Part shown: piece after piece, positions 18,272 through 55,976 of the stretch | How positions within the stretch are numbered: position 1 is the first letter of the stretch | How the letters are laid out: each line of letters starts with the position of its first letter | Assembly (NCBI GenBank): GCA_963737155.1 | Contig: CAVTRN010000002.1 | Location: forward strand, 1,440,001 to 1,504,000 | DNA length: 64,000 bases | Reading direction: 5' to 3' | Source of the DNA: Nitrospirota bacterium | Lineage (GTDB): Bacteria > Nitrospirota > UBA9217 | The notes under the pieces: generated by a model | Told to the model about the DNA's origin: nothing | The model's input: only the letters and a program-made list of their open reading frames with translations | Databases searched by the model: none | Translations under genes and position numbers: made by a program

Positions 18272-18281
18272 AATGCACTAT

Positions 18282-26831: not shown

Positions 26832-26917
26832 TTTATTTCCCCAAACAAAGAAGAATATTCGGTCAACCCGATCAAGTATAGCATAGATGGCCAGAAAAAT
26901 AAAACTGCCTACTTTCG

Positions 26918-27295
26918 TTCAAAGTCGGAAGCGGTACCCTAAGCGGTAACTATTCCTTCGGGTCGCGATTCGAGCAAGAAGCGGGAACAAACCCCGAAGA
27001 GTTGATCGGCGCGGCGCATGCAGGTTGTTTCAATATGGCTCTCACGATGATATTGGAACAATCGGGATATAACGTGGAGCACATTCACACCATTGCGAAA
27101 GTGAGCATCGACAAACTTGGCGGAGGGTATAAAATCGCGAATATCGAACTCGATACTGAAGGCAAGGTGCCGGGCTGTGATGAAAAGACGTTTATGGAAA
27201 AAGCTGAACTTGCAAAGAAGAACTGTCCCGTATCCATGGCATTGACAGGAGTTGTGATCGCGTTGCGGTCTCGGCTCATGAAAGCGGCCGCGTGA
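26918..27295 (+). pseudogene. osmC: OsmC peroxiredoxin, 5'-truncated
   Basis: YSFGSRFE..GTNPEELIGAAHAGCF and KKNCPVS; in-frame TAA just upstream and no start codon for the missing N-terminus. Confidence 0.75.
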
Positions 27296-27459
27296 CCCGA
27301 CAGGGACTCTGGATCCTTCCATAAATGCGTCCCGATAATGTTTTTCGAGACGCATTATTATTAAACACGAGAGGGTTCGCGGCGTCAGTTAATGAGTATT
27401 ATGGTGCATCGTTTCATCGTAAAAAAGAAACAATGTCGCCTTGTGGAAAGGGAAATGCC

Positions 27460-28679: not shown

Positions 28680-28808
28680 TTTCACTCTTCAATTACTGTA
28701 GTATTGTAGCAAATTGCCGCGTTCATGATGAGCTTGTGCACGGGAGAATGCACATAAAAACTAAATTAGATGACGAGGATGATAGCAGCGTCATGGTTTA
28801 GATAAGAA

Positions 28809-30278
28809 CTATCCACCCACATTTTTCATGGCTTGTCTGAGTTCATCGGAATCCGGATGACGTTGAAGAGCATCCTGAAATAGGCTAAGAGCTTGCTTTT
28901 TCAAGCCGTTTCTCGAATAGAGATTTCCAAGTTCGAGATAGTACTCAATTTTTGAAGGAGCCATTTTTATAGCTTTCTGGAATAGTTTCTCGGCGTCATG
29001 GAGCCGGCGGGGCATATGCGTGAGTGCAAGACCATGATGGAACAGGTACTGCGCATTGGATGGGTCAAGGAGTACGGCCCAACGGAATGATTCCTCCGCC
29101 CCCCAAAAGTTTTGTCCCCGGTAGTGTTTCAGTCCTTCATTAAATTGTGACATGGCTGATCCTTTTTTAATGTTATCCTGCTGGTTCTTAGCCAGCGCGG
29201 TTGGCCAGCGTTTTTTGATCCTCTTAGCCAGCGAAAGGTCATATGCTTTCCGTTTATCATCCGCATTCAGGACATTGTAGGCTTCCGCGATTGTTGTGAA
29301 AATGGCCGCGAGCTGTTCTCTCATATCAGACAGCTCACTGTCCATGTGCCGGTCGGGATGGTACCTCATCGCGAGATGAAAATAAGCCTTTTTAATTTCC
29401 TGCAATGTTGCGTTGCGACCGACATCGAGAATCTGATAGTAATCCAGGTCAGCCATTTTCCCCATAGTTTGGCGAAGGAGCTCTCTTGTGACCTTTACCG
29501 TGGGTTCCTCTTTTTCTCGGCCGGCAGGAGCGGATCGATTGCGTTCTTGCGTTGTAGGCTCCGATTTAAGGCCAAGCAATTCGACGAGCCGTAGGGCATT
29601 TAATGCATATATCGCTTTGAGAGTGTTGAAATCGCCAATTTCTGATAAGGCGCAGATCTCTTCGATACTTCTGCTGCCGTCAATGAAGGAGAAAATTGTT
29701 TGCTGGTCTTGATCGAGTACAATGCCGTGGAGAAGAGAAGATGAATCCTTTTGTGCGCGGAGTACCATTTTGAGGGGCGGAAGGGACTTACGCACGAATC
29801 TCCAGTCAAGGTGGCGGATGCCCTCCAACAGCAGGTTGCCTGTGTCTATCTGGAGCGGAACAATTTCCGCGAGAAGCATGGGAGCGTTGTCAAACGTATA
29901 GCGGCCATCGCTCCACGAAAACAGACTTAATATAATTTGCGTGACCTGTAGTTTGGCCCCCTCTATGAGGTCCTTGGGCGTGATGAGACCTCGTTCTAAG
30001 AGCACAGCGCTGAGTTGCTTCCCGGTCTGTTTGGCAGCCTCTTCGGAGGCGGTACGCATTTCTTCCGTAAGTTTTCCACTCCGAAGCAGTGATGTGCCCA
30101 ACTGTTCCGCATCAAGATTTGAGGAGGCATAGATAATATCGCCGTTCCTGAAAAAAACTTTTTTGGTTTCCTTTTCACGAGATAGGACCACAATACCGGT
30201 CTTTTTTTGAGTTCTAAGGTCTTGGAGAAGCCAAGGGACAACCATGTTCTTGATATCGCCGGACATTACGTTCATCAT
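28809..30278 (-). CDS. DUF4388-like domain + DnaJ domain + TPR protein
   Basis: KKTG.....K.VFF.NG.II.A.S, FSW.DG.Y.F; DYYQIL..IKKAY..LA.RYHPD; C-terminal TPRs. Confidence 0.85.
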   Translation of the reverse strand: MMNVMSGDIKNMVVPWLLQDLRTQKKTGIVVLSREKETKKVFFRNGDIIYASSNLDAEQLGTSLLRSGKLTEEMRTASEEAAKQTGKQLSAVLLERGLITPKDLIEGAKLQVTQIILSLFSWSDGRYTFDNAPMLLAEIVPLQIDTGNLLLEGIRHLDWRFVRKSLPPLKMVLRAQKDSSSLLHGIVLDQDQQTIFSFIDGSRSIEEICALSEIGDFNTLKAIYALNALRLVELLGLKSEPTTQERNRSAPAGREKEEPTVKVTRELLRQTMGKMADLDYYQILDVGRNATLQEIKKAYFHLAMRYHPDRHMDSELSDMREQLAAIFTTIAEAYNVLNADDKRKAYDLSLAKRIKKRWPTALAKNQQDNIKKGSAMSQFNEGLKHYRGQNFWGAEESFRWAVLLDPSNAQYLFHHGLALTHMPRRLHDAEKLFQKAIKMAPSKIEYYLELGNLYSRNGLKKQALSLFQDALQRHPDSDELRQAMKNVGG

Positions 30279-31326
30279 CTACTTGTAGTCCTTTAGAATC
30301 TGTTTTAACTTTTATTACTTGGCGCGGATCAATAGTTGATACGTTCTATGCTATTTTTATGAAATCCTTGAAAGCGAAACAAGGTTGATGCTTGTGACCC
30401 ACCGAATAATAATACTGCCGTGTCGCGATGATCCTGCATTGGCGGCCAAAAACTAATAGATTTAAAGCCAAAATGACTAATCCACACTACGCCATGATTG
30501 AGCTATGTATTTCAATGCGTGATATTATAGCATTTTCATCACGAATCGAAACATTATTTTTTATAATAGTGAGTTCATAATAAATTGCTCAATTGTTAGT
30601 TTACCATCCACAATGCTGGCTAAGCTTTGATAATTAATGTGCGATTTGAGTAAAATCGTGATATATTATGGCATGCAAAGCTTTCTTTTTATGCGAAAAA
30701 ATGAGAGGGAGCTTCCAAAACTGCATGGAACTATTGTTGTGCCGTAAACTAAATACGTAACATGATCATGCCGGCATGGTGGTTGTGTGGAAAACGTTCA
30801 GCTTTAGAAGCATTGTGGTAATTTACTGCAGGGTGTCATCATCAGATAATAAAAGTAATTTGGGTATCGCAGAACAACGGCTTCTTGGTTTCCGCGCTGC
30901 AAAGGTATATACGGTTTCCCTTGTTATCAAAAGTGAGGCAGAAGACTACGGTAATTAGCTCGTGGATGAATGCGTCCCTCGCTTATTCATCCCAGGAATG
31001 TTCCCTATACGGATATGTAGTCTACGGGAGTAAAACCACTCGATCAAAATTTAAATGTATGTGTTGTTATACCGGCATTCAGGCCGGTATAAATGAAGCT
31101 CGTAATTACCATGTCAGAAATTCTGGCAAGGTCATCGACGTATCAGATAGCGCGAAGTCCGTCCTCCGTATTCCGATCGATAAGTTCCCGTCACGCAGGG
31201 AGTATAATATATAAGCCACTATGGGATGGCTTCGGGTTTATTATTTTCGAATTTCTGTTTAGCTGGATCGTCGGCACAGCCCAAAGGATCTATAGCTAGG
31301 AGTATTTTTCTAATAAATTCATTCTA

Positions 31327-31355
31327 TTGACTACGCTGTTTAAAATTATTATAAT
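31327..31355 (+). promoter_or_regulatory. Sigma70-type promoter
   Basis: TTGACT-17 bp-TATAAT upstream of 31445. Confidence 0.65.
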
Positions 31356-31444
31356 ACTCATTCTCGTTGCGCTGGGAATTTGGTCTTTAAGCAGCATAGC
31401 TCTATCAGCTCTTTAAGCAAACGATTCAACCTAGGTGAAGGACT

Positions 31445-34400
31445 ATGCACAGGGAACTTTTTCTCGGCATTGATGTCGGCTCAGTAACAATCAAAACCGC
31501 AGTCCTTGATGCGGGTCGTTGCCTGCTTTCCGAATCCTACGACCGGATCAAAGGCGATCCGCTCGAAGTGCTTTTGCACCGCCTCCAGGCACTTAAAACA
31601 GAACATCCGGACAGCAGCATCAAGGCCGCCGCTGTCACTGGCAGTGGCGGGAAACAAGTTGCGAAAACAATCGGCGCCCTATTCATTAACGAAATCCTTG
31701 CCCAGTCTGCATTTATAGGGCGATACCACCCAAATGCACGGACTATTATCGAGATAGGTGGCGAAGATGCCAAACTCATCACGCTCGTTCCGGATAGCAC
31801 ATCAGGCGGCGTCAAGATTGAGGATTTCTCCATGAATGCGGCATGCGCCGCAGGCACCGGATCATTTCTCGATCAGCAGGCCACTCGTCTCCATCTGACC
31901 ATAGAACAGTTCAGCAACATAGCCCTCAAATCGAAAATGCCGCCTCGCGTCGCGGGCCGGTGCAGCGTATTTGCGAAGAGTGACATGATCCACCTTCAGC
32001 AGATTGCGACTCCGGATTACGATATTGTTGCAGGCCTCTGCTATGCAGTTGCTCGGAATTTCAAAGCGACCATCGGCAAAGGGAAAAAGTTTCCCGCCCC
32101 GGTTTTGTTTCAGGGAGGTGTCGCGGCGAACCTCGGTATGCGCAGGGCTTTCCGCGACGTGTTGAAACTTTCGGAGCAGGAGATGAAGATTCCCGACCAC
32201 TTCGCAACGTCGGGTGCAATCGGGGCCGCGTTAATGGCCCGCGAGCAGCGCGGAGAGGTGGCCGTCTACCTCGGGGCTCCGGCGATTGCGACGGTGCTTG
32301 CAGGAGGCGTAGGGTGGGCGGAGAGCGGCATGGCGCGTCTTTCACAGCCGATGGGTATCATGCCGAATCCTGACCAGGACGGAACAGCCGTCAGCGACGG
32401 GCCCATCGAGGCCTATCTTGGTGTGGATGTAGGTTCCGTATCGACAAATGTTGTGGTCATTGACAAAAACAGGATAGTCCTGTCGAAACGCTATCTCCCT
32501 ACGGCCGGGAGGCCCATCGAAGCGGTGAAACAGGGCCTAGCGGAGATCGGAGCGGAGATTGGTGGGAAGTTGAAAATCCTGGGTGTAGGTACTACGGGGT
32601 CGGGCAGGTATCTGACCGGCGACATGATCGGAGCGGATGTGGTAAGGAATGAAATTACCGCCCAGGCCACGGCTGCTGCAGCCATAGACCCCTTGGTGGA
32701 CACCATTTTTGAGATCGGCGGCCAAGACTCGAAATACATCAGCCTTCGGAATGGTGTGGTTGTGGATTTCGAAATGAATAAAGCCTGTGCCGCAGGAACG
32801 GGTTCATTCCTCGAAGAGCAGGCGGAGCGACTCGGAATCAAAATTAAACAGGAATTTGAGGCTAAGGCGTTCTGCGCCGGTTCTCCGTGCCGGTTCGGCG
32901 AACGCTGCACGGTTTTCATGGAATCGGACTTGGTCCATTCTATGAACAAGGGCGCCAGCGTTGAGGAACTCACCGCCGGGCTCGCTTACTCCATTGCTTA
33001 CAATTACCTGAACAAAGTCAAGGCGGGTAAGCCAATCGGCGACCGCATATTCTTCCAGGGTGGTGTTGCCGCGAACAAGGCCGTAGTATCGGCATTTGAA
33101 ACCATCACCGGCAAACCCATCACCGTACCGCCCCATCATGAGGTTACCGGCGCCATCGGTGCGGCGATCCTCGCCATGAGCAACTCCAACGGCAGGAGCG
33201 CGTTCAAGGGTTTTGATTTGAACAAACGCGCCTATACCGTTACGACCTTCGAATGCGCGGCATGTGTGAACCGCTGCGACATCCGGCAGGTGAGCTTCGA
33301 GGGTGAGAAGCCGCTCTACTACGGAAGCCGATGCGAAAAATATGATGTCAAGAAAAAGCATTCAGATGCAGGATCTTTGCCCGACCTTTTTTCCGAGCGC
33401 GAACAGATGTTTCTCGCTTCGCCGCTCACACATACCCTCGGCGAAGATGCTCCGGTGATCGGAATTCCGCGTATGCTTTATGTCAATGATTTTCTGCCTT
33501 ACTGGAAGGTTTTTTTCAATGAACTGGGCTATCGCGTCGTATTATCGGAAAGCACAAACCGCTCGCTGATCAATAGGGCGCTCGAAGCGACCATTGCGGA
33601 GACTTGTTTCCCGGCCAAAGTAGGGCTAGGCCATGTCCTCGATCTTCTTGATAAAAAGGTCGATGTGATTTTTCTTCCGAGTTTCATCCGTCTTCCAGTT
33701 TCTCACGACCAAGCAAGAAATACTCAGGCTTGTCCCTATGCCCAGGCTTTTCCCTATGTCGCGAAGGCTTCGATCCGCTTCGGAAAGACGAGGACTGTTG
33801 AGCCCGTTCTTTTTATGCACGATAAGCGTCAGTTCGATAAAAGCATGAAGGCACTCGGCAGGAGTCTTGGGAAGGGCGCGGCTAACGTGGCCTGGGCGCA
33901 GCGCCGCGCCGCTGAAGCATTGGATGATTTTCACCGCGCTCTTGAGCGACGCGGCCGTGAGGTCTTGGCAGCGCTCAAACCGGGAGAGCATGCGCTGGTG
34001 CTCATCGGACGAAATTACAACACCTGCGATACCGGTATCAACATGAACCTGCCGTCTAGGATTCGCGACCTCGGTGTGCAGGCGATACCCATGGATTTTA
34101 TCCCGCTTCATGAGGTAGATCTTTCAGGGCAGGAGCACATGTACTGGAAATCGGGCCAGAGAATCATAGCGGCGGGACGCTTCATCTCTGGCAACCCTAG
34201 ACTGTTTCCACTGTACCTGACGAATTTTGGGTGCGGGCCTGATTCCTTTATCACCCATTTTTTCCGCGCAGAAATGGGCGGGAAACCGTTTCTCCAGCTT
34301 GAAATCGATGAACATAGCGCTGATGCGGGCGCCATCACGAGAATCGAGGCATTCTTGGATAGCCTGAAGAACGTGAAGGAAACACGACCGCGACCGGATT

Positions 34401-43077: not shown

Positions 43078-43600
43078 ACAGGAAAGGGGTAAATGCCGTT
43101 TGTCACCTTCCGTAATGAGAATCTTAAGGTAGCGTTTCATCAGCTCTCGAATTGGCCAAGGCGATGTGTGAGGATATTAACCCTTCTGTTGGTTCCGAAG
43201 AAGAATAATTTTAATGGCAAGCTCCGGAGTCTTTTGACTGCCTTAAGCTTTGCGGAAGCCGACGGCTAGGAGACTGCGCGAGGGGTAATGTCCGCAGGTG
43301 CGGCTGACGGCTAAGACTGATATGGGAAAATGCTGGCAAGCCTCGTGGCAAAATATCGAAAGAAGAGCTTCCAGGTGGGTGTTGAGGAAGCGGATCTTAT
43401 CGCTGTATCGGGAATACCTAGTTTCCTGAAAGAATTTGCCGGGATTGGCAGGGTCGTCCTGAGCCTGGCGTAACCGGTAGTGACAATTTCTAAGTCGGGG
43501 TCTTCACCGGCCTGTGCCGATAGCGGCCCGACCGATTGCATCCATGACTCTGCAGGACTGAGATGGAACATTTTGAAGGGTGGCATCAGTGCATGTTTGA
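43078..43600 (+). pseudogene. Decayed duplicate of the 40171-40671 gene
   Basis: Shared blocks TTTGTCAC, ATGAGAATCTT, CGAATTGGCCAAGGCGATGT, AAGAAGAATAAT, GGTCGT.CTGAGCC; ATG replaced by ACA; stops and frameshifts. Confidence 0.85.
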
Positions 43601-43677
43601 GAGAACAGACTATTCAGCGCTGGACATTAAATAGAAATCGGCATTACTCTAAAACCAAGAGAAAAGGAGTAAACATA

Positions 43678-44607
43678 ATGTATCTTTATTTACCGGTAGC
43701 ACTGACAAGCATGAATATCTTAATTCCTGTCGGACTTGGTTTGGCGGTGGGGCTTTTATCCGGTCTCTTTGGAGTCGGAGGGGGATTTCTTCTGACGCCG
43801 CTTCTTATCATGTTCGGAATCCCGTCGACCGTTGCCGCAGCAACAGATTCTAACCAAATCGTCGCCGCCTCCACATCAGGTACCTACGCTCACTGGAAGG
43901 TTGGCAATGTGGACTTTAAAATGGGGATTTACCTTCTGGTCGGCGGGTTCGTAGGTGGCATCGTAGGCGTCCAGGCAATCAAGGTCCTGCACGCCATGGG
44001 CAACGCCGATTTCGTGATAAAGATGACCTATGTGCTAATGCTCGGGATTGTCGGCTCCTATATGTTCGTTGAAAGCCTTCAAAGCATGCACAAGAAAAAA
44101 GGCGCGGTAGTTGATAAGGTCAAAACAAGTGAAAAGGAATCGACAGTTGGAAAGTTCATGAAATCTCTGCCGCTTCAGACCCGATTCGAGAAGTCGGGAG
44201 TAACCCACTCAGCCTTGGTGCCGGTGGTGCTCGGTGCATTTGTTGGCGTCCTGGCCGCGATCATGGGGGTGGGCGGTGGTTTCCTGATGGTGCCGGTGAT
44301 GGTGTACATGCTCAGAATGCCGATGCACGTGGTGGTCGGAACTAGTCTGTTCCAGATCCTCTTTACCTGCATCGAGGTTACCTTTCTTCAGGCTTACACG
44401 AACCATAGCGTCGATTTCATGCTGGCAGTGCTCCTTCTAGTAGGTTCGACCCTCGGGGCACAGGTCGGCACCGTGTTGGGGAAAAAGCTGAAAGGCGAAC
44501 AGCTAAAGATTCTGCTCGCCTGTATTGTGCTTGTTGTGACCGTTAAGATCATTTTCGAATTGACGCTGACTCCATCATTATTGCTTTCACAAGTAGGAGG
44601 GCACTAA
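43678..44607 (+). CDS. TauE/SafE (sulfite exporter) family membrane protein
   Basis: MYLYLPVA start with AAGGAG RBS; duplicated GVGGGF(L)xxP motif. Confidence 0.92.
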   Translation: MYLYLPVALTSMNILIPVGLGLAVGLLSGLFGVGGGFLLTPLLIMFGIPSTVAAATDSNQIVAASTSGTYAHWKVGNVDFKMGIYLLVGGFVGGIVGVQAIKVLHAMGNADFVIKMTYVLMLGIVGSYMFVESLQSMHKKKGAVVDKVKTSEKESTVGKFMKSLPLQTRFEKSGVTHSALVPVVLGAFVGVLAAIMGVGGGFLMVPVMVYMLRMPMHVVVGTSLFQILFTCIEVTFLQAYTNHSVDFMLAVLLLVGSTLGAQVGTVLGKKLKGEQLKILLACIVLVVTVKIIFELTLTPSLLLSQVGGH

Positions 44608-44609
44608 TC

Positions 44610-45443
44610 ATGTACCTCCACTTCTTAAGTCCCCTGATCCATTCTCTGAGATTTATCTGCAATGCCAGATTGTTCGGATTCATATCTCTGGCGCTGGTTT
44701 TTTCCGTGCTGCAACTTGCAGACGCCACACCCGCTTCGGCCATGCTCACGGCAACGGCGAATCATGATCACATCAAGATAGATTTCCTTTATCACGGTAG
44801 CAATGTAAGCATAAAGGGCGAATCAGACTCCGGTGTGGATCTGGTCATTAAGATAACCTCACCCGAGGGAGAGCAGACGCTGAAAAAGAAGGGCAAGGTC
44901 GGCGGTATACTCTGGATGAATGTCGGCAAGCTAACATTCGAGAAAACTCCAAATTTCTACGAAGTTTTCAGCACAAAAAATATCGAAGACATCCTGAGCA
45001 ATGAGGAAATGGAAAAATACGTGATCGGATATCCTGCGCTGCAAAAACATATTGAGATAAAACCGGTCGCAAATAACGTGGAGAAGGCCACCTGGTTTAA
45101 CGAGTTCGTTAAATTTAAGGAAAACTCCAAAGTATACGCTACGTCTTCTGGCAAGATAACGACGAAATCGGCCAATGGACGGCAGGAATACTATATTGAT
45201 ACCGACTGGCCTTACCAGGCCGAGCCCGACGATTATCTGATCACGGTCTATGCCGTGAAGAATAGCAAAGTTGTGGAACAGGCAGAGTCGAAGGTGAAAG
45301 TCGAACAGATCGGAGTAGTCAAGACATTGGCGACGATGGCGAAGAACAATGCAGCCTTGTATGGGTTACTTTCCATCGGCATTGCGCTGGGCGCAGGTTT
45401 CGGTGTTGGTCTGGTGTTCGGAAAGGGCGGAGGTTCTCATTGA
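44610..45443 (+). CDS. TIGR02186-like periplasmic protein with C-terminal anchor (usual TauE partner)
   Basis: I.IDF.YHG..V.I.G, KKKGKVGGILWMN, C-terminal LYG...A..AG TM. Confidence 0.8.
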   Translation: MYLHFLSPLIHSLRFICNARLFGFISLALVFSVLQLADATPASAMLTATANHDHIKIDFLYHGSNVSIKGESDSGVDLVIKITSPEGEQTLKKKGKVGGILWMNVGKLTFEKTPNFYEVFSTKNIEDILSNEEMEKYVIGYPALQKHIEIKPVANNVEKATWFNEFVKFKENSKVYATSSGKITTKSANGRQEYYIDTDWPYQAEPDDYLITVYAVKNSKVVEQAESKVKVEQIGVVKTLATMAKNNAALYGLLSIGIALGAGFGVGLVFGKGGGSH

Positions 45444-46306
45444 TGTATAACTCAATCGTTGTAGGGTTCGACGAGTCTGAGTCAAGCAAAGCGGCGCTGA
45501 AAGAGGCTTCACTCAGAGTGAAAAATCATGGAGGAAAACTCTTCTTGGTTCATGCGGTCTATTTCGACAAGGAAGAGTTCACGACTCTCCCATCTCAAAT
45601 GGAAAAGCGTTTTGAGATCGGCACAAAGGTCTGCCTTGATGCGAGACAGAATCTCCATGATGATTTTGGACTGGACAGTAGAGTCGAGTCGGTCATCTGC
45701 GAGGGAGAACCGTCCGATGTAATCGTGGAAATTGCCCAGGGGAAAAAGGCTGAGCTTATTGCACTCGGTACCTACGGCAGGAAGGGGCTGAAAAGGCTGC
45801 TCATGGGCAGTGTGACGTCGCGGGTCATCCTGAACGCACCCTGCGATGTGCTGGTGGTCAAGAAAACCTGCCCCCAGTGCAGCGGCAGCTACCACTCCCT
45901 GCTAGTTGCTTTTGACGGATCTGAATCTAGCAAGAAAGCGCTGACAAAGGCTTGCGACCTTGCAAAAGTTGACGGCGCGGATGTATCGGTCCAATATGTC
46001 ATCCCCCGCTACGAGGAGATGATGGATTTCTTCAAGACCGAGTCGGTCAAAAAGAGCCTCTTCGAGGAAGCAGAAAAAATCGTAGATGGAGCGAAAAAGA
46101 TCTCGGCGGGCCTGGGGGTTTCAATCAAGACCGTAGTTCAAGAAGGCCACGCTGCTGAAAAGATTGTGGAGTTTGCCGATACAATGAAGCACGACTTGAT
46201 CGTCGTGGGCACCCATGGTTGGCGCGGCGTTAACAAGGCGCTCATGGGGAGCACGGCGGAACGGGTCATTGCTCATGCTTCATGTCCCATACTGATCACG
46301 AGGTGA
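45443..46306 (+). CDS. Tandem-domain universal stress protein
   Basis: Two USP domains: IVVGFD.SE.S, LIALG.YGR.GL..LLMGSV; LVAFDGSE.S, DLIVVGTHG..MGSTAE. Confidence 0.93.
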   Translation: MYNSIVVGFDESESSKAALKEASLRVKNHGGKLFLVHAVYFDKEEFTTLPSQMEKRFEIGTKVCLDARQNLHDDFGLDSRVESVICEGEPSDVIVEIAQGKKAELIALGTYGRKGLKRLLMGSVTSRVILNAPCDVLVVKKTCPQCSGSYHSLLVAFDGSESSKKALTKACDLAKVDGADVSVQYVIPRYEEMMDFFKTESVKKSLFEEAEKIVDGAKKISAGLGVSIKTVVQEGHAAEKIVEFADTMKHDLIVVGTHGWRGVNKALMGSTAERVIAHASCPILITR

Positions 46307-46715: not shown

Positions 46716-46792
46716 GGGGCGACGCGCCATCTCCTGTTCGGCGTGCGAACAAAACAGGATATTAAACAATATGCTGATAAAGGGTGCACGTT

Positions 46793-46981
46793 ATGTTTGA
46801 AAGATTGTTGCAGCCAATGCAACTGATTCTTATCCTGTTGATCGTCCTGATCATTTTCGGTCCAGGGAAGCTCCACGAACTCGGCGCAGGACTGGGAAAA
46901 AGTGTTAGAGAATTCAAGAATGCCATGAAAGAAGGTCAGGAGACAGCGGTGATCGAAAATAAAGAAGAGAAGAAAGTCTGA
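46793..46981 (+). CDS. tatA: TatA/E twin-arginine translocase subunit
   Basis: LILILLIVLIIFGPGKL.ELG.GLGKSVREFK. Confidence 0.9.
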   Translation: MFERLLQPMQLILILLIVLIIFGPGKLHELGAGLGKSVREFKNAMKEGQETAVIENKEEKKV

Positions 46982-47211: not shown

Positions 47212-48855
47212 ATGATAAAGAAAAAATTCGGAAGAATTCTGAGACTCAAGATTTTTTCTGAGGACGAACTGGAGAAGTTTGCTGGGGAATCAAAGGCGTC
47301 CGGGGTGCCGCTGGAAGAACTTCTGATCAGCAAGGGCATAAGTAAGCACGAAATTCTGTTCTGTCTATCTGAATTCTATGGACTGCCATTCGTGGAATAC
47401 GCTGAAAGCGTTGTCGCTTCCTATTTCCTGGTTCTGCGGCTTGATCTGGAGCATCTCAAAAAGAACCTATGGTTTCCGCTTTCGGTTCGGGAAAAACAGG
47501 CCGAGGTAATTGCCTATCGTCCTGACGACCCTCGCGTGGAGGAGGAGATCAAGAAAACCCTGGGGGTAGAGCAGGTCAATTTCAGGGTCGCGCTTCCCTC
47601 AGACATCATCCGCATTATAGAGCACAATTTCGATGTAAATCCCTATTTCTGTATTTCCGGCGGTAGAACGCCGCTTGCGCGGGTGAGGACACTGTTCGCC
47701 TACCGGCGGTCCACGTATGCTCATTACCGCACTTTGTTCGCCAAAGGGAGGACTGGTCTCGCTTTTATCAGGACCGGTGTCTCCTTTATCGTAATTGCGC
47801 TTCTATTCATGCGCGTGCTGGGGTTTGGTTTTTACGCCATTCTTGAAACGCCGCTCATGATCGCTGGTCTCATTATGGTTTTCGATGGGACCAAATGGTA
47901 CCTTCCCGCACGGCGGATCGCCGATAAACCAATTGACGCGACATGTACAGAGGCGACCTGGGGTACCCGCGTGTTGAATGCCGAGTTAAACGATGGACCT
48001 CCCAAGTTCAGCCGGACAGAAAAAGTGAAGGGCTCGGCGGAGCTGAGGGCCGATTGGGAAAACCTGTCGCCCGTCATGAGACGCAGGTTCCTTGCAAGCG
48101 ACCGGACTGATATGGCCGAGGAGCGGACCTCACTTGCTGGCCACCGGACAAAACTCGCTAGGGCACGTACCGGCCTCGCTTTTACACGCACCGGTATCGC
48201 TTTCACCGGTCTCGGCATTGGGTTGATGAGGCAGTTTCAAGAAAGCCGATGGACGATCTTGGACGTCGTGCTTATCGTCATCGGAGTGCTCATGTCCGCG
48301 GAGGGATTCCATTGGTACTTCGGTGGCAGAAAGGCCGGAATCGAGGGATTGCGAACTGTGCTCGAAGTGCTGAACAAGGAAACCATCTGGGATTTGGTGT
48401 TTCCTCCAGGGCACAAACGATCTGGGCCCAAAAAGGACAAGGCCGGTCCGGCGGTCACCGCTGACCAGAAACCAGGCATCTGGGCAACAACAGGTCTTGC
48501 TCTCGAACGTACGGTGCTTGCCGACCGGCGGGGCGTTATGGCGAGGCTCCGCACGGTCATGGCGGTGTCGCGGACGGGTTTCTCCTATGTCCGAACCGGT
48601 ATGAGTATAACATCCGTGGGCGCCGGCCTCATGGCATATTTCGGCACAGCCTCCATCGGCTGGACGGTTTTCAACGTACTGCTGATCATCGGCGGTCTCC
48701 TCCTGATTGCGGACGGATATCGTTGGGTCCTACCGGCGGAACGTATGAGAAAAGAATATCCCTATTGTTACGGAGATATGGAAATAACCATTCCCGATTA
48801 TGGGAAACCAGCTGTCGAATGGGGGACGGTTATTTTTAATAACTATGAAGAGTGA
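47212..48855 (+). CDS. MshEN/GspE-N-like domain + three DUF202-like membrane repeats
   Basis: N-terminal LEELL..KGIS..EIL..LSEFYGLPFVE and WFPL..V...PDD; three RTG(L/F)(A/S)(F/Y)xRTG + two-TM modules. Confidence 0.8.
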   Translation: MIKKKFGRILRLKIFSEDELEKFAGESKASGVPLEELLISKGISKHEILFCLSEFYGLPFVEYAESVVASYFLVLRLDLEHLKKNLWFPLSVREKQAEVIAYRPDDPRVEEEIKKTLGVEQVNFRVALPSDIIRIIEHNFDVNPYFCISGGRTPLARVRTLFAYRRSTYAHYRTLFAKGRTGLAFIRTGVSFIVIALLFMRVLGFGFYAILETPLMIAGLIMVFDGTKWYLPARRIADKPIDATCTEATWGTRVLNAELNDGPPKFSRTEKVKGSAELRADWENLSPVMRRRFLASDRTDMAEERTSLAGHRTKLARARTGLAFTRTGIAFTGLGIGLMRQFQESRWTILDVVLIVIGVLMSAEGFHWYFGGRKAGIEGLRTVLEVLNKETIWDLVFPPGHKRSGPKKDKAGPAVTADQKPGIWATTGLALERTVLADRRGVMARLRTVMAVSRTGFSYVRTGMSITSVGAGLMAYFGTASIGWTVFNVLLIIGGLLLIADGYRWVLPAERMRKEYPYCYGDMEITIPDYGKPAVEWGTVIFNNYEE

Positions 48856-50086
48856 GTTGATGAACGGCGATCTCGCGGATGATGTGGTGCGGCAGAGTTC
48901 GGAATTTTCGATCCTGGTAGAACGGGGGATTCTGAGCCAAGCGGAACTTGAGGAGGCGATAAGCACGGCTCAGGCTCGCGGGATCGAACTCGAAAAAGTC
49001 CTGCTCAGTGAATTCAGCGTGGCGAAACGGCATCTGCTTGATGCGCTGGCCGCATACTATCGCTGTGATTCCATCGAATACGATGAGCGTCTGCCGATTC
49101 CACCTGAGCTTCTGGCTATGCTCGACCAGGATTCACCTTCTTCATACCAATGGATGCCAGTGATGAAAGACAAATCAGGAACCGTGGTCATTGCAGCGAG
49201 AAATCCCGAAAGTCCCGAGATGCGTGAGGAGGTCAGAAAATATGTGATAGCGGACCGTTACGAATTCCGGGTCTCCCTTGATGCCGACATCCAATGGTAT
49301 ATCCAGGATTTCCTCCATGACAAGGTGGGACTTTTGATAGGAACGGAGCGCACCGGGTTGGCCTATTGGCGAAATACCATGGCGCAGTGGCGCACGAGGA
49401 TGGCCTGTTACCGGACGGATCTCGCGAATGCACGAACTGGCTTGGCCTTCCTCCGATGGGGTCTGGGGACAATCGCATTATCGAACGCGCTCCTGAAATC
49501 CAAAAACATTGCATACCATCCTGTTGTCTATTTCTCAGTTCTCACCGTCGGGATCGTTATCGCTTTTTACGGGCTGCCGATCTATTTGAATATTCGGAAA
49601 TCCCGATTGACTCCGCCCGGGCACCAGACGCTGGTGGAGGTAACGGCGACAACGATCCAATTCCTTGAGAATTATCATTTTATCGAGAACACAGGGGGTA
49701 AACAGGAGATGCAGGGGACGATGCTTGCGAGGATGGGTGATTATCTTGCCGATTACAGCACCTATCTAAACCCGACTCCATCCTCCAAGACCCGCACGAT
49801 GTTCGCGCGCGAACGGAACGTTCTGGCCGCCCAGCGGACGATCGCGGCCTGCTACCGGACCATCTATGCCCGCGCACGAACTGGGCTGGCGTTTATCCGG
49901 ACCGGCATTTCCTTTCTGAGTATCGGTATTGGTATCCTGGGGTATTTCGGGTTCGGTTTGCTTACGTCCTTCAACCTCTGGCTTATGGCCGCTGGCATTC
50001 TGATGCTCGTAGACGGAGTGCTCTGGTACTGGCCGGTTCGGAAGGAACAGGGTGAAGCACCGAGGGGCATCGCATATCCGGAATGA
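48845..50086 (+). CDS. MshEN/GspE-N-like domain + two DUF202-like membrane repeats (paralogue of the upstream gene)
   Basis: ILVERGILSQAELEEA..LEKVLL..LLDALA.YY; two RTGLAF.R.G + two-TM modules; ATG 48845 overlaps the upstream stop by 11 nt. Confidence 0.8.
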   Translation: MKSELMNGDLADDVVRQSSEFSILVERGILSQAELEEAISTAQARGIELEKVLLSEFSVAKRHLLDALAAYYRCDSIEYDERLPIPPELLAMLDQDSPSSYQWMPVMKDKSGTVVIAARNPESPEMREEVRKYVIADRYEFRVSLDADIQWYIQDFLHDKVGLLIGTERTGLAYWRNTMAQWRTRMACYRTDLANARTGLAFLRWGLGTIALSNALLKSKNIAYHPVVYFSVLTVGIVIAFYGLPIYLNIRKSRLTPPGHQTLVEVTATTIQFLENYHFIENTGGKQEMQGTMLARMGDYLADYSTYLNPTPSSKTRTMFARERNVLAAQRTIAACYRTIYARARTGLAFIRTGISFLSIGIGILGYFGFGLLTSFNLWLMAAGILMLVDGVLWYWPVRKEQGEAPRGIAYPE

Positions 50087-50854: not shown

Positions 50855-50992
50855 GAGATAAATTTATTTTGCTTTTCAAACAAATATGTTAAAATGAGCT
50901 ATCATGAAAGCGATAGGATGCAAATTGCCATTTTGCGAGTAGTCCGATATCCGTCGTCCCTCATTGAGGGGAACTTTCCAGCATGGAGTTGT
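50855..50992 (+). repeat. Dispersed repeat R2, copy b (contains extended -10 TGtTAAAAT)
   Basis: Similar to 42798-42936. Confidence 0.85.
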
Positions 50993-51486
50993 GGCTCATC
51001 AGAATGAAATGCTCGATAGTACAGATATTGGGATCAGGCATCAGTCAGATCGAAAACAACAAGATTGTAGCCATTGTTCCGAAAGAGGAGATACGACTGA
51101 TCAAACTTTCCCATGATTCACGATCCCGCCACCCCTTTCTGCGGTTTCTCGCAGGGTTTGTCCTGATGGTGACGGGGCTGATCCTGCTCCTAGCGGAGTT
51201 CATTGTCGCAGAAGGCGGTATCGTGTTCCTTCAGATGAAATCGTTTGTCTTCGGTTTTCCCATCGTACCCATCCTTCTCTGGACCATGGTTGGCGTGGGT
51301 GCCTGGCTCTTGATCGGGGTCTTCCGTGGACGATACAATTTTCTAATCAAGACCGATCGGGGCATGCGGAAAATATTCTTCGAGGAGTCGGCCGATATCC
51401 GGGAGATTCGGGAAATCATCACCAGAGCGAAGAATGAGTTCGGGTATGATATCGATGTCACGCTCTTGGATTCCATGCATTTTTAG
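50983..51486 (+). CDS. Hypothetical two-TM membrane protein
   Basis: Open frame with two hydrophobic segments, co-oriented with the downstream kinase. Confidence 0.7.
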   Translation: MELWLIRMKCSIVQILGSGISQIENNKIVAIVPKEEIRLIKLSHDSRSRHPFLRFLAGFVLMVTGLILLLAEFIVAEGGIVFLQMKSFVFGFPIVPILLWTMVGVGAWLLIGVFRGRYNFLIKTDRGMRKIFFEESADIREIREIITRAKNEFGYDIDVTLLDSMHF

Positions 51487-51542: not shown

Positions 51543-52976
51543 ATGAAAATCGAAAACAAACTGTTCATTTCGAACATCATCAACGGGGCATTCATAATAC
51601 TGATCGGTCTGTTTGCGTTTCAGAACATGAATCTCGTTCTAACGAAACTCAGATTTGTGGAAATCGCCGACGACCTGAATGCATCGTTTCTGACCATGCG
51701 GCTCTCGGAAAAAAACTATTTTCTCTACCACGACCGTAAAGCGCTGTCGGAGATACGCGAGAAGATCTCAACGACCTTGGAAACCATCAGCAGTGTACGA
51801 GAGGATATTTTTCGAGCAATAGGCGAAACTGACCTCAATAACTTGGTGACACGTCTGACGGTCTACTCAACGGTTGTCGAACAAACACGAAAGGAGAATA
51901 ACTGGGATCCGCGTATGGAGGCGCGTCTCAGGGAGGAGGGGAAAAAGTTAAGGGAATTCTCCGATTCCATCACGCACCTCGAGCGCAGACGCGTAAACGA
52001 CATCATCCTGAGTTCGAAACGGATTCTGCTATATTCCTTCTGGGCCATACTGGCATTGGCGCTTTTTATAAGCCGTTTTATTTCGGAGAAAATTGTCCGC
52101 TCTCTCCGCGCAATTGAAAAGATGACCAAATCCATATCGGAAGGGAATTTTCATCGGATAGGAGGGCACCGGACGAGGGACGAACTTGACTCGGTCATAA
52201 CGGCAATCAACTCCATGTCCGAGGAGCTTGCGCACCGCGAGGAACAGATTATACAGTCCAAGAAACTTGCCTCGCTCGGCATACTGACAGCGGGCGTGGC
52301 CCATGAAATCACGAACCCGCTGAACAACATCTCCATGATTGCACAAACCTTTGATGAACTGTACGCGCAATTGAACGAGAAGGACCGCCGCGAATTCATG
52401 AGCAAGGTGGACGCGGAAACGGAACGCATCAGAAAGATCGTGAAGAACCTACTAGATTTTTCTAAACCCAAGGATTCGATTCTGAAAGAAGCGGATATCA
52501 ACAAGGTGATCCAGAAGGCCCTTACGCTGGTTCAGAACATGATCGACGTGCAGAATATCAGTACAACAGTGACGCTTGGAGACGGCATTCCCCATCTCTA
52601 TATCGACGAGGACCAGATCCAGCAGGTGCTAGTGAATCTCGTGACGAATGCGATCCAGGCTATGTCGTCAGGCGAAAGGCTGTTTATCGCATCGAGGCTC
52701 GGCAAAGACCGGGATTCAGTCGAGATTTCGGTGATGGACACGGGCAAAGGCATAACTCCTGAGTTTCTTCCCCATATTTTCGATCCTTTTTTCAGCACCA
52801 AGGGCGAGGGGGGAACCGGTCTGGGACTTTCAGTTAGTTATGGTATTATTAAACATCACAAGGGCGAAATCAGGGTAGAAAGCAAAGTGGGGGTCGGCAC
52901 GACCTTTACTATAGAATTGCCGAGCTATCATCCAGAGGAGAATAATGATGGACAAACACAGAATCATGATCATTGA
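51543..52976 (+). CDS. Membrane sensor histidine kinase with HAMP (paralogue of 35741)
   Basis: RLSEKNYFLY, DELD...INSM, AHEITNPL, NLVTNA, GTGLGL. Confidence 0.95.
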   Translation: MKIENKLFISNIINGAFIILIGLFAFQNMNLVLTKLRFVEIADDLNASFLTMRLSEKNYFLYHDRKALSEIREKISTTLETISSVREDIFRAIGETDLNNLVTRLTVYSTVVEQTRKENNWDPRMEARLREEGKKLREFSDSITHLERRRVNDIILSSKRILLYSFWAILALALFISRFISEKIVRSLRAIEKMTKSISEGNFHRIGGHRTRDELDSVITAINSMSEELAHREEQIIQSKKLASLGILTAGVAHEITNPLNNISMIAQTFDELYAQLNEKDRREFMSKVDAETERIRKIVKNLLDFSKPKDSILKEADINKVIQKALTLVQNMIDVQNISTTVTLGDGIPHLYIDEDQIQQVLVNLVTNAIQAMSSGERLFIASRLGKDRDSVEISVMDTGKGITPEFLPHIFDPFFSTKGEGGTGLGLSVSYGIIKHHKGEIRVESKVGVGTTFTIELPSYHPEENNDGQTQNHDH

Positions 52977-53316
52977 TGATGAGAAGATCGTGGGTGACAT
53001 GGCGAAAATGTCGCTCGAACACGAAGGATACGAAGTGGAGACCTTCCTGAACGCCGAGCCGGCGCTTGCACGGCTCAAGGAACAGAAATTCCATGTTGTC
53101 GTCACCGATTACAAGATGAAGGGCATCGACGGAATGGAGGTGCTCAAAACCGTGAAAAAAGAGTATCCCGGTACCACAGTGATTATGATTACCGCTTTCG
53201 CGAACCTCGATGCGGCAATCGAAGCGCTGCGCGGCGATGTGCACGATTTTTTCCCCAAGCCGGTCAAGATCAAGGAACTGAAGGAGTCTATCCGGCGGGC
53301 GCTGAGCAAGGCATGA
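52945..53316 (+). CDS. Single-domain response regulator
   Basis: IIDDE, TDYKM, ITAF, KP. Confidence 0.93.
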   Translation: MMDKHRIMIIDDEKIVGDMAKMSLEHEGYEVETFLNAEPALARLKEQKFHVVVTDYKMKGIDGMEVLKTVKKEYPGTTVIMITAFANLDAAIEALRGDVHDFFPKPVKIKELKESIRRALSKA

Positions 53317-53384: not shown

Positions 53385-55976
53385 GTGAAACAGCCAGTGC
53401 GCATACAATCATTCTTTTCCTCTCTGTTACGAACGTTTTCGCGCAGGAAAACCATGGGCAGCCGTGAGGAATTCAAAGCAGCCTTCGAGCGTTTTAAAAG
53501 TGTACTCGACAGCAACAACCGGGCCTTGGAAACCATAACGGATATGGGAGAAAAACTGGGCGGAGACTATCTTTTTGACATTGTTTACCTCAAAAAAGCC
53601 TATACTCGCCTGAAAGAAGACATGACGTTCTCCCTCAGAAGCTTCGATGAACTCACGCAGAACCGCTATCAGCGGCTGCATGATGTATTCGGCTACCTCG
53701 ATTCCCTGGTCATGCGCATGGTGGATGAAACGCCGCTCCCAGCCCCGCCGTTGGTGCTGTCTCTTGAAAGTATTTCCTGGGGAACGCCGCACGACGTGGG
53801 CGGCAAAAACGCGCATCTTGCGGAGGTGAGAAACCAGCTTGGCCTCAACGTCCCCGATGGTTTTGTTGTTACGACGTCTGCATTTGACGCGTTCATTAGA
53901 TTCAACAACCTGGAAAGTCATATTGAAAGAATTAAACAAATAGCCGCTACCAATGATGCAGGTCTCCAGGAACTGCAGGAGCTCATCCTTCAAGGCCCCT
54001 TCCCGCCTGAGTTAAGTCTTACCATGAAAAAAGCCCTGGAAGTGATCAAGTCACGTTATGGAGAATGTTTTCTGGCGATCAGGAGCAGCGCCGAAGAAGA
54101 AGACAGCGGCAGCTCCTTTGCCGGCCAGTTTAAAACCATCCTGAACGTCCCACTCTCGCAGGAATCTGTGGAGCGGGCATACCGGGAGGTGATCGCAAGC
54201 CTCTTTTCGAGCAAGGCTGTTTCTTATCAGCGGCAGACCGGTTATGACATTGGGTCATTTAAAATGGCCGTCGGCTGTCTGGTCATGGTCGACTCGGCTT
54301 CGAGCGGCGTTGTTTATTCGACAATGCCGGAAGGGGACAACGGCACACTGATCATCAGCGCAGCCTGGGGCTTGGGGGAAGCCATTGTCGAAGGGAAAAT
54401 CGAAACCGACATCTCCATCGTTCGGAAGGAAAAGAAACCAGTCCTGCTCCAAACAGCAACGGGAAACAAGAGTACCATGATTGTCGGGAACGTGAAAGGC
54501 GGGATCATCGAGGTCAATACCCCTGAGGACCTCAGGCAGAAGCCATGCCTTTCGTCTGAGCAAGTAACGGAGCTCGCCACACTGGCGATAGCCATCGAAC
54601 GTTACTTCGGCTCTCCGCAGGACATAGAATGGGCCATGGATAAGAGGGGCGCCCTTTTCATTCTCCAGGCACGGCCGCTGAAAGTGAAGGCAAAAAGCTT
54701 GCAATCCGAAGATATTCTGACAGAGAATTCCGTTTCAGATGCCATACATCCGGCAATCCTGCGCGATCAAGGGTTCGTGGTTCAGAGAGGCGCGGGAGCA
54801 GGAAAGATTTTCGTCGTAACAAATCCCTCTGACAGCATGATACTGCCAAAAGGTGCTGTTCTGGTAGCGAAACACGATTCATCGCTCTTTGTCAGAATAA
54901 TGCCTTACGTATCGGCGATCATCACGGAAACGGGCTCGCAGACCAGCCACATGGCCGCGCTCTGCAGGGAGTTGAAAATTCCGACAATTGTAAATGTTCC
55001 GAACGCGATGGAGATCCTGAAACATGGACAGGATATTACCGTCATCGCTGGAAACGACAACAAAATGTCGGTATACCGTGGAATTATCCGAGATGTACTC
55101 ATGAAGTCGGGACAGGATTTTAGCCGGATGGAGGACGTCTATGAGTTTCGTAAAAAACGGTATATGCTGAGATATCTTTCTCCCCTGAACCTTATTGATC
55201 CGCTCATGGATGAGTTCACCCCCGAGCGCTGCAGAACCATGCACGACATCCTCCGTTTCATGCATGAGAAAGCCGTAGCCGAACTGGTGGAGCGCGCGCG
55301 GGGAGGAAGTGCAACCCTCAAAAAGCGCGGCGCGGTCACGCGGCTTGACCTTCCCGTGCCAGCGGGGATTCTTGTCATGGATATGGGCGGCGGCCTGGAG
55401 CTGAGCGGACGAGATGGAGCGGCGACCTTCGACCAGATCACCTCGATTCCCTTCCGGGCGATCATAGGGGGAATGATTCGTCCGGGTGCATGGCATTCCG
55501 ATGCCGTAGCACTCAAAACGAGTGATTTTTTATCGAGCATGATGCGGATGCCAGACATTACGAATACCACAGACAGTACGGCGGGATACAATGTAGCGAT
55601 TATCTCACGGGAATATGTGAACATGAGCATCAGGTTCGGATACCATTTCAACATGGTGGACTGCTATAGCAGCGAGACGACGAAAAACAACCACATATAT
55701 TTTCGTTTTGCCGGAGGGGCAACGGACTTGACAAAGCGGTCGAGGAGGCTAGAACTCATCGCACGGGTTCTCACTTCATACGGTTTCAATATTAAAATAA
55801 AGGGAGACCTTCTAATTGCCCGACTTGCTGGGATCAATCAGACGGAAATGGGAAAAGTGCTCGACCAGACCGGTCGTTTAATTGCCTTCGCCCGTCAGCT
55901 CGATGCCGTGCTTCATGACGATGCCGCTGTCGAACGGTATGCTAACAATTTTCTTGACGGCACTTATGAATTATGA
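53385..55976 (+). CDS. PEP synthase/dikinase-like protein (ATP-grasp + phospho-His domain + non-canonical C-terminus)
   Basis: VGGK, AIRSSA..ED..SFAGQF, GLGE, PQDIEWA, ILQARP, TSHMAALCRE. Confidence 0.9.
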   Translation: MKQPVRIQSFFSSLLRTFSRRKTMGSREEFKAAFERFKSVLDSNNRALETITDMGEKLGGDYLFDIVYLKKAYTRLKEDMTFSLRSFDELTQNRYQRLHDVFGYLDSLVMRMVDETPLPAPPLVLSLESISWGTPHDVGGKNAHLAEVRNQLGLNVPDGFVVTTSAFDAFIRFNNLESHIERIKQIAATNDAGLQELQELILQGPFPPELSLTMKKALEVIKSRYGECFLAIRSSAEEEDSGSSFAGQFKTILNVPLSQESVERAYREVIASLFSSKAVSYQRQTGYDIGSFKMAVGCLVMVDSASSGVVYSTMPEGDNGTLIISAAWGLGEAIVEGKIETDISIVRKEKKPVLLQTATGNKSTMIVGNVKGGIIEVNTPEDLRQKPCLSSEQVTELATLAIAIERYFGSPQDIEWAMDKRGALFILQARPLKVKAKSLQSEDILTENSVSDAIHPAILRDQGFVVQRGAGAGKIFVVTNPSDSMILPKGAVLVAKHDSSLFVRIMPYVSAIITETGSQTSHMAALCRELKIPTIVNVPNAMEILKHGQDITVIAGNDNKMSVYRGIIRDVLMKSGQDFSRMEDVYEFRKKRYMLRYLSPLNLIDPLMDEFTPERCRTMHDILRFMHEKAVAELVERARGGSATLKKRGAVTRLDLPVPAGILVMDMGGGLELSGRDGAATFDQITSIPFRAIIGGMIRPGAWHSDAVALKTSDFLSSMMRMPDITNTTDSTAGYNVAIISREYVNMSIRFGYHFNMVDCYSSETTKNNHIYFRFAGGATDLTKRSRRLELIARVLTSYGFNIKIKGDLLIARLAGINQTEMGKVLDQTGRLIAFARQLDAVLHDDAAVERYANNFLDGTYEL

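Follow-up and report, generated by a model that had tools for sequence, protein, structure and literature searches.

The yeast VTC complex, whose subunits have DUF202 as their membrane domain (table in PMC7283521), is among the described systems closest to the one analyzed here. The membrane part of VTC has been reported to form a pseudo-symmetric 3:1:1 pentamer of Vtc1, Vtc3, and Vtc4, with a pore lined by the five first transmembrane helices (TM1) and a cytoplasmic vestibule bearing two positive rings (K24/K698/K622 and R31/R705/R629), seven residues apart, which are required for vacuolar polyphosphate (polyP) and were proposed to act as a polyP selectivity filter (PMC9911596; 10.1101/2023.01.27.525886). 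In this study, we analyzed a pair of adjacent genes, here called A and B, located in a 64,000-nucleotide stretch of DNA from a Nitrospirota bacterium (UBA9217 lineage; assembly GCA_963737155.1, contig CAVTRN010000002.1, positions 1,440,001 to 1,504,000), referred to below as the window. The two proteins contain five DUF202 modules, three in A and two in B, and in each module six in-register heptads of an arginine ladder stand just ahead of a transmembrane hairpin.

Both proteins also carry an N-terminal domain of the MshEN family (PF05157), which they have in common with MshE, PilF, and NfrB; the partner of this domain is a secretion ATPase or a glycosyltransferase in those three proteins, whereas in A and B it is a membrane DUF202 array. 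The combination of DUF202 with MshEN was not found in the literature searched, and the supplementary tables of PMC5013675 may list it. Of 8.1 million PMC papers and 0.36 million preprints searched, 16 mention DUF202, none of them in its title or abstract, and searches under polyP-channel or VTC-like terms yielded nothing on a bacterial DUF202 channel among the matches listed. We propose that A and B form a 1:1 pseudo-pentameric arginine barrel that would conduct an anionic solute, with access controlled by the MshEN-like domains and a two-component system, a reading whose chances we put at about even; the passage of a solute is suggested by analogy with VTC.

Arginine ladders in genes A and B

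The five arginine-ladder repeats, which the initial annotation listed together, are divided between two polypeptides (3 + 2). A single five-repeat protein is ruled out, since the two open reading frames (ORFs) are not in the same frame and each contains an MshEN domain. The two genes, their N-terminal domains, and the ladders, with the first residues of heptads 1-6 in orthologous modules, are as follows:

47212-48855, + strand: gene A, 547 amino acids; N-terminal MshEN-like domain, then three DUF202 modules
47377-47634, + strand: MshEN (T2SSE_N) core of A, residues 56-141
47665-47790, + strand: arginine ladder of module A1, six heptads; RRRRRR in 77 of 78 orthologous modules
48082-48207, + strand: arginine ladder of module A2; RRRRRR in 76 of 79 orthologous modules
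48487-48612, + strand: arginine ladder of module A3; TRRRRR in 79 of 79 orthologous modules
48860-50086, + strand: gene B, 408 amino acids from the ATG at 48860; MshEN-like domain, then two DUF202 modules
49085-49321, + strand: MshEN core of B, residues 76-154
49349-49474, + strand: arginine ladder of module B1; RRRRRR in 73 of 75 orthologous modules
49793-49918, + strand: arginine ladder of module B2; RRRRRR in 73 of 75 orthologous modules

With the ATG at 48860, the start of B lies four nucleotides after the stop of A; further in-frame ATGs are found at 48845 and 48800. Both proteins belong to DUF202 by the Pfam model (PF02656, gathering score 23.4), A with 58.5 bits over three stretches and B with 32.6 bits over two, and four of the five modules exceed this cutoff individually in a genome scan. 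The modules contain the feature by which DUF202 is recognized, namely an arginine heptad motif leading into a hairpin of TM1 and a second transmembrane helix (TM2). In every module, the Pfam model begins only at heptad 4, and heptads 1-3 therefore lie outside the family model. Membership of the MshEN family is likewise established by Pfam scores of 43.6 bits for A and 36.9 bits for B (cutoff 23.1). For gene A, 991 homologs are detectable, each of about 547 amino acids and annotated at most as YidH/DUF202 family.

All 30 heptads quoted in the initial annotation are present in the translation at the places given there, six in register per module, with the consensus R-T-x-(L/M/F)-A-x-x. Arginine occupies the first position in 29 of them, the exception being the threonine of heptad 1 in the third module (A3), and position 5 is indeed nearly always alanine (Ala 25, Ser 4, Gly 1). 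The threonine of A3 (48487-48507) is invariant in orthologous modules (79/79) and constitutes a conserved gap in the outermost arginine layer. Toward its periplasmic end, TM1 carries additional in-register arginine in A1, A2, and often B1.

Between modules, the ladder DNA is 47-60% identical, with 26-43% identity at third codon positions, and the 29 arginines are encoded by six different codons; the ladders are thus not recent DNA repeats. When the window was scanned in six frames for in-register arginine runs of at least five, these five sense-frame places were found together with four antisense echoes of the ladder DNA and, in stop-interrupted frames, two further runs, and any run of at least five appeared in only 52 of 20,000 residue shuffles of A and B. 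The antisense runs (minus strand 48188, 48593, 49455, and 49899) are echoes of CGN codon periodicity and not genes.

We compared 78 related genomic loci from Nitrospirota/Thermodesulfovibrionales, Candidatus Sulfobium, Dissulfurispiraceae, Dissulfuribacterales, Candidatus Electronema, and other Desulfobulbaceae, counting modules per ORF with a hidden Markov model (HMM) built from the five modules of the window. The 3 + 2 pair was found in Nitrospirota, in cable bacteria, and in other Desulfobacterota, and A and B are separate ORFs in all 68 complete loci. The module patterns, in gene order, are:

68 of 78 loci, + strand: 3, 2
3 of 78 loci, + strand: 3, 3, 2 (a second A in tandem)
1 of 78 loci, + strand: 3, 1, 2, 2
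6 of 78 loci, + strand: other patterns, due to contig ends or apparent frameshifts

In loci L021, L055, and L068 (and probably L020), the A-B pair is preceded by a second full-length three-module A-type gene in tandem, which may encode an alternative A subunit. A search based on B for fusions longer than 715 amino acids, either A-B or B with a histidine kinase, returned nothing, which is weak evidence. Among 151 sampled Nitrospirota genomes, DUF202 is matched in 68, and four to six matches, the number expected of carriers of the A-B pair, are found in 20.

The membrane parts are nearly constant in length (394-407 amino acids in A and 250-263 in B, one fusion excepted), and the comparison of homologs that the initial annotation had called for gave six heptads per module in nearly all orthologs. 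No true seventh heptad was found upstream in any orthologous module; the apparent seventh to ninth heptads of module 2 in some 50%-identity representatives are linker arginines without T/L/A at the signature positions. In the 2316 heptads of 386 modules, position 1 is arginine in 96%, position 2 threonine in 78%, position 4 leucine in 55% and methionine in 20%, with mostly hydrophobic residues in the remainder, and position 5 alanine in 83%, serine in 11%, and glycine in 4% (together 98%). The earlier suggestion that the DNA has diverged under selection for the register agrees with these figures, and at the level of sequence they support strong selection on the ladder.

Residues 5-130 of A align weakly with the cyclic di-GMP (c-di-GMP)-binding domains of PilF in the PDB (E about 4e-4), and the best NCBIfam matches of B, to PilB and NfrB, all score far under the respective cutoff. 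The MshEN c-di-GMP motif is, in its strict form, a tandem of RLGxx(L/V/I)(L/V/I)xxG(L/V/I)(L/V/I)xxxxLxxxLxxQ; neither this nor the relaxed 24-residue form given in PMC5013675 occurs in any of 72 A and 73 B N-terminal domains. The NCBIfam c-di-GMP motif model NF053729 has no match in A and scores 25.3 bits in B, under its cutoff of 38. Since the binding motif is absent, gating by c-di-GMP was rejected as the default.

Canonical and long-ladder DUF202 relatives

The canonical set consisted of the 30 best DUF202 genes of the Nitrospirota sample, one of them from this genome. Their products are one-module proteins (frames of 131-270 amino acids), and the PF02656 match is common to canonical DUF202/YidH-type proteins (about 115-150 amino acids) and to A and B, as is the sequence R-x-x-x-A-N-E / R-T-F-L-A-W-x / R-T-x leading into TM1, followed by an in-register lysine or arginine two heptads further on. 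In the canonical proteins, the heptads read R-V-H-M-A-N-E / R-T-F-L-A-W-I / R-T-S-..., then a small residue and then K/R; these three heptads correspond to heptads 4-6 of the A and B modules, and the K/R further on matches the additional in-register arginine within TM1 of A1, A2, and often B1. The initial annotation gave two or three heptads for simple DUF202 proteins and judged the present ladder to be longer, which holds: there are six here versus three in 30 of 30 canonical genes. Canonical proteins further differ from A and B in having one module per protein and no MshEN domain. YidH has a third membrane helix, unlike the modules described here.

One canonical DUF202 gene lies elsewhere in this genome. 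A complete pyruvate phosphate dikinase (PPDK) gene 5 kb away from it on contig 1 was considered as a linked partner and rejected, as it is an ordinary PPDK located beside glyS on the opposite strand.

A profile of 110 modules was searched against 1.84 billion representative proteins, giving 4301 matches with E ≤ 0.001, of which 242 reached E ≤ 1e-10, and the wider family was surveyed in the best 150 of the 4301 matches. Among these 150, an anchor HMM detected three modules in 11 proteins, two in 13, and four or five in none. About eight of the two-module representatives are B-like (397-411 amino acids), and the remainder are shorter or resemble pieces of A. In 67 single-module representatives (with a methionine start and not truncated), the ladders comprise 2-20 heptads, with a mode of six and 28 proteins having at least seven; this count takes lysine as well as arginine, and some of the six-heptad proteins are fragments of B (e.g., P0152). 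Many single-module ladders are thus well above six heptads in length; examples, all in proteins assigned by Pfam to DUF202, are P0157 (124 amino acids) with 8 heptads, P0159 with 11, P0142 with 16, and P0146 with 20. Another protein, P0148 (363 amino acids), combines a ladder (an in-register run of 14 with one gap) and a DUF202 hairpin with a C-terminal receiver domain. Two further candidates, P0220 and P0246, are coiled coils and were discarded as false positives.

These single-module proteins have the same RTxLAxx heptads directly ahead of the DUF202 hairpin as A and B, and differ from them in having one module per chain, about 7-20 heptads, and other N-terminal regions; because there is one module per chain, they are presumably homo-oligomers. 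No description of long-ladder DUF202 proteins was found in the literature searched. Ladder length varies among the single-module proteins, whose oligomers would have identical strands, and is fixed at six across all five modules of A-B. The initial annotation had named independent variation of heptad number between repeats as a result that would refute its inference, and the opposite is observed. Locking of the length at six fits a shared bundle, and we regard A-B as a putative concatenated 3 + 2 DUF202 pentamer with a long arginine ladder, within a broader undescribed set of ladder-bearing proteins.

Predicted helices and a predicted five-helix ring

AlphaFold2 was applied to the membrane parts of the two proteins with alignments of 67-68 rows. 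The mean predicted local distance difference test score (pLDDT) was 81.8 for residues 145-547 of A, with a predicted template modeling score of 0.78, and 73.3 for the membrane part of B. Each ladder together with TM1 is predicted as one unbroken helix of 51-56 residues, with another membrane helix following after a short loop (helix limits in model residues):

47665-47922, + strand: module A1; helix 8-59 (ladder and TM1), TM2 65-93
48070-48372, + strand: module A2; helix 143-197 (ladder and TM1), helix 204-243
48478-48756, + strand: module A3; helix 279-333 (ladder and TM1), helix 338-371
49346-49603, + strand: module B1; helix 7-57 (ladder and TM1), helix 65-92
49781-50053, + strand: module B2; helix 152-207 (ladder and TM1), helix 213-242

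Two membrane helices per module place all five ladders on the side of the soluble N-terminal domains, that is, in the cytoplasm. At the variable positions (3, 6, and 7), 35% of residues are charged in heptads 1-4 and 0-1% in heptads 5-6, a pattern indicating that heptads 1-4 (28 residues, about 42 Å) are cytoplasmic and that heptads 5-6 lie at or inside the membrane.

The membrane parts of A (403 amino acids) and B (252 amino acids), with their alignments, were then submitted to a complex predictor. The interface score ipSAE was 0.74, 0.73, and 0.73, versus 0.00 for the best of three controls, the runs shared at least 79% of contacts, and pLDDT was 62-64 for the partner and 67-70 for the other chain; the mark applied had been calibrated on solved complexes, of which 116 of 157 pass, and on mismatched pairs, of which 2 of 215 pass, counts that hold only approximately with user-supplied alignments. 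In the predicted interface, helix A1 (8-58) contacts helix B2 (152-205) and helix A3 (285-331) contacts helix B1 (5-58), and helix A2 takes no part, an arrangement that fits ring closure in the order A1-A2-A3-B1-B2.

The orientation of the arginines was addressed with the same contacts. One neighbor is met through heptad positions 1, 2, 5, and 6 and the other through positions 7, 1, 4, and 5, so that both faces share the arginine of position 1 and the alanine of position 5. An angle of 103 degrees separates the faces on a 3.5-residue wheel (108 degrees in a pentagon), and their bisector, at 26 degrees, falls between arginine (0) and alanine (51); the conservation moment of the orthologous columns, which is independent of the model, points to the same side (39 degrees). 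The neighbors of each arginine at i-4, i-3, i+3, and i+4 are Leu/Met and Ala, which places it within a packing seam. Taken together, the contact faces, the conservation moment, and the flanking residues suggest that the Arg/Ala stripe is turned toward the bundle axis, and hence that arginine faces the lumen. The five-helix modeling proposed in the initial annotation as a check of orientation thus yields a prediction in which Arg and Ala sit where both neighbors are contacted. Of its five-stranded bundle with stacked arginine rings, the bundle is matched by the predicted ring, whereas rings that are flat do not follow from it: the cross-chain pairs of highest confidence include those of the arginine of A3 heptad n+1 with the arginine and threonine of B1 heptad n.

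A comparison with the VTC structures (PDB 7ytj and 8i6v) shows both likeness and difference. Each system has five DUF202 units in an asymmetric arrangement (3 + 1 + 1 in VTC, 3 + 2 in A-B, where the ring is predicted) and basic residues seven apart on the N-terminal part of TM1. The VTC subunits are separate chains with two basic rings and with SPX and TTM polymerase domains, whereas the A-B modules are concatenated, three and two per chain, with six basic layers (three times the number in VTC), an extra in-register arginine near the outer end, and an MshEN-like domain; neither A nor B has an SPX or TTM match in Pfam. The canonical DUF202 protein of this genome provides a bridge, as its three arginines align with K24, R31, and N38 of Vtc1 (8i6v_A, 7ytj_A, and 9umg_A), and by this weak alignment, credible only because both proteins are Pfam DUF202, the K24 ring would correspond to heptad 4 and the R31 ring to heptad 5. 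By analogy, A-B appears VTC-like in channel architecture without being a VTC complex.

Neighboring genes and possible roles of the A-B pair

A two-component system, consisting of a sensor histidine kinase (HK) and a response regulator (RR), and a dikinase-like protein are encoded downstream of B:

51543-52976, + strand: sensor histidine kinase with HAMP, HisKA, and HATPase domains (Pfam); conserved downstream neighbor
52945-53316, + strand: response regulator, a stand-alone receiver; conserved neighbor, after the kinase
53385-55976, + strand: dikinase-like protein, 863 amino acids, with a PPDK_N ATP-grasp domain and a swiveling His domain; conserved neighbor

In 53 of the 78 loci, B is followed on its own strand by the kinase gene, in 42 of those within about 210 nucleotides, and the computed start-stop gap is -4 nucleotides in seven loci, three Electronema loci among them. 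A-B-HK-RR synteny is observed in 53 of the 78 loci, and in many of them the genes overlap or almost adjoin. In locus L044 (7571-10189), B and the kinase form one ORF (MshEN, two DUF202 modules, HAMP, HisKA, HATPase), in which the modules are recognized by our own HMM and Pfam scores one of them, below its cutoff; this ORF comes from a single metagenome-assembled genome and may be a real fusion or may result from a sequencing error where stop and start overlap. In 42 of the 78 loci, a dikinase-like protein is encoded after HK-RR. Its N-terminal part of about 135 amino acids and its C-terminal part of about 310 amino acids have no assigned family, no PEP-utilizers_C domain was detected with Pfam, and matches of the C-terminal domain in the ESM Atlas are limited to unnamed or 'PEP-utilizing' clusters.

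Between B and the kinase, a 167-amino-acid predicted membrane protein with no family match is encoded at 50983-51486; this ORF is present in only 12 of the 78 loci, often alongside an MFS gene inserted at the same spot. PADLOC defense-system models gave no match for A, B, this ORF, the kinase, or the dikinase-like protein, and only generic receiver-domain matches for the response regulator. Upstream, at 43480-46306, genes encode a TauE-family protein (similar in its C-terminal portion to the TauE portion of MamO), an Alph_Pro_TM protein, and a tandem universal stress protein (Usp). These three precede A-B in Nitrospirota loci and are missing from most loci of other phyla; the Electronema loci L051 and L058 retain TauE and Alph_Pro_TM. 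A TatA gene is located at 46784-46981, and the G+C content is 0.43-0.49 at 18001-32000 compared with 0.50-0.55 on either side. The genome, 100% complete by marker genes, has no match to PPK1 (PF02503), PPK2 (PF03976), or the VTC polymerase (PF09359), and has one Ppx-GppA family gene (C2:1871267-1872151), far from the A-B locus.

In the mechanism we propose, A and B would pair 1:1, and their 3 + 2 DUF202 modules would close into a pseudo-fivefold ring A1-A2-A3-B1-B2, to which each module would contribute its 51-56-residue helix as one stave of an inner five-helix barrel and its TM2 as part of an outer layer. The arginine of position 1 and the alanine or other small residue of position 5 would be directed toward the barrel axis; the helix seams would be sealed by threonine (position 2) and Leu/Met (position 4), and positions 3, 6, and 7 would face outward. 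The result would be a cationic tube of 29 arginines in six layers alternating with small residues, in which heptads 1-4 (about 42 Å) would project into the cytoplasm, heptad 5 would lie at the membrane surface, and heptad 6 within the bilayer. Such a tube would bind and conduct an anionic solute, probably phosphate-rich or polyanionic, with access controlled at the cytoplasmic end, where the MshEN-like domains stand directly ahead of helices A1 and B1; control would probably be exerted through the co-transcribed histidine kinase and the single-domain response regulator.

Several observations weigh against this mechanism. A passing score from the complex predictor supports binding without showing it and may reflect likeness to solved complexes, and the pLDDT values of the complex are only moderate (62-70). 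The Arg-Arg pairs are offset by one heptad, for which the model gives no explanation; the arginine side chains may run down the groove, or the axial stagger may be real, and the offset may be related to the invariant threonine of A3 heptad 1. About 30 like charges in a narrow core would be unfavorable unless counter-ions are bound. Fold searches with the three-module A model returned nothing at E ≤ 0.001 in Foldseek, only weak matches to ABC-exporter membrane domains, and designed helical repeats and toroids in VIA-align (wide), with a top Z of 11.3, below the stated helical noise; there was no VTC chain in either list. Likewise, the 110-module profile searched against PDB sequences found no VTC chain, only a TetR regulator at E 0.21, and the alignment of the canonical DUF202 protein with Vtc1 is weak (E 0.43-0.48, 14 bits). 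VTC subunits have three membrane helices and the A-B modules two. Finally, there is no transport evidence for bacterial DUF202 proteins, and YidH is described only as a hit in a transporter screen, with no effect in a transport assay (PMC10299036).

The alternative that survives best, unlikely in our estimate, is a rigid signaling stalk through which nothing passes and in which an Arg-Thr-Ala polar zipper would couple the membrane hairpins to the MshEN-like domains and the kinase. The five helices would still bundle as in the prediction, and the complex would serve the two-component system as sensor or scaffold. The tight HK-RR synteny with its frequent gene overlap, the B-kinase ORF of L044, and the receiver fusion in P0148 would all suit a signaling device, as would the high ranking of Arg(A3)-Thr(B1) pairs in contact confidence; single-module ladders of up to 20 heptads (about 200 Å) resemble a stalk more than a pore, and the genome contains no known polyP synthase. 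Five arginines per layer are nevertheless unlike the cores of stable signaling coiled coils, and the arginines run on into the bilayer (heptad 6 and the in-register position 8), where their use in a zipper is not obvious. Moreover, the homologous positions of VTC are reported to line a real pore and to be needed for polyP transfer (PMC9911596; 10.1101/2023.01.27.525886).

A dedicated polyP translocon, working exactly as VTC does and moving polyP synthesized in the cytoplasm across the inner membrane or into a compartment, is in our view distinctly improbable. It would account for the DUF202 pentamer logic and for basic rings at the VTC positions, and six rings rather than two would grip a long linear polyanion. 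Cable bacteria are known for polyP granules, and the family occurs in their loci L051, L058, and L060. The same reading must contend with a complete genome in which no PPK1, PPK2, or VTC polymerase match was found, which weakens a polyP-specific role that the analogy makes attractive, with a Ppx-GppA gene at a distance from the locus, and with proteins that have no fused polymerase domain and an N-terminal domain of the MshEN type.

Still less credible is the absence of any joint ring, with the modules, or A and B, acting separately and the ladders serving as amphipathic cationic helices that lie on the membrane surface or whose outer side binds another anionic partner, lipid head groups or nucleic acid for example. 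Arginine-rich amphipathic helices commonly bind anionic lipids, the fold searches found no specific pentameric template, and the complex model is a prediction only. This account does not fit the 3 + 2 arrangement in 68 of 78 loci with identical ladder length in all five modules, nor the arginines lying in a packing seam between Leu/Met and Ala; in addition, AlphaFold2 keeps each ladder unbroken with TM1 rather than kinked onto a surface, and the complex scores 0.73 versus 0.00 for the controls. A channel opened by c-di-GMP bound to the MshEN domains as in MshE/PilF, for which the Pfam matches above threshold in both proteins and the PilF c-di-GMP-binding domains as closest solved relatives might speak, is highly improbable given that the relaxed motif is found in none of the 72 A and 73 B domains and that the NCBIfam motif model misses A and stays below its cutoff in B.

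An extension of the arginine-barrel reading, which we offer as a long shot, concerns the whole operon A-B-HK-RR-dikinase. It might realize the VTC principle from other parts, with a six-layer arginine tube of about 80 Å threading a linear phospho-polymer (polyP or another polyanion) made or primed by the dikinase-like enzyme, under two-component control and in organisms without PPK1, PPK2, or VTC; the single-module relatives would then be homopentamers with longer tubes.

DUF202 is a large bacterial family that is almost unstudied, and the VTC channel is its only understood member. A gene pair with five modules in total, kept across phyla, provides independent evolutionary evidence for five as the working number of the family. 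As a naturally asymmetric two-chain version, A-B should be easier to express and to solve than a complex of five subunits. If the predicted structure is true, a ladder of six layers (7-20 in single-module relatives) would be an unusual device, an extended barrel of five parallel helices with an arginine lining, relevant to the movement or holding of polyanions and a natural counterpart of designed alpha-helical barrels. If the substrate were polyP or a related polymer, the pair would raise the question of polymer export in bacteria that have no known polyP kinases.

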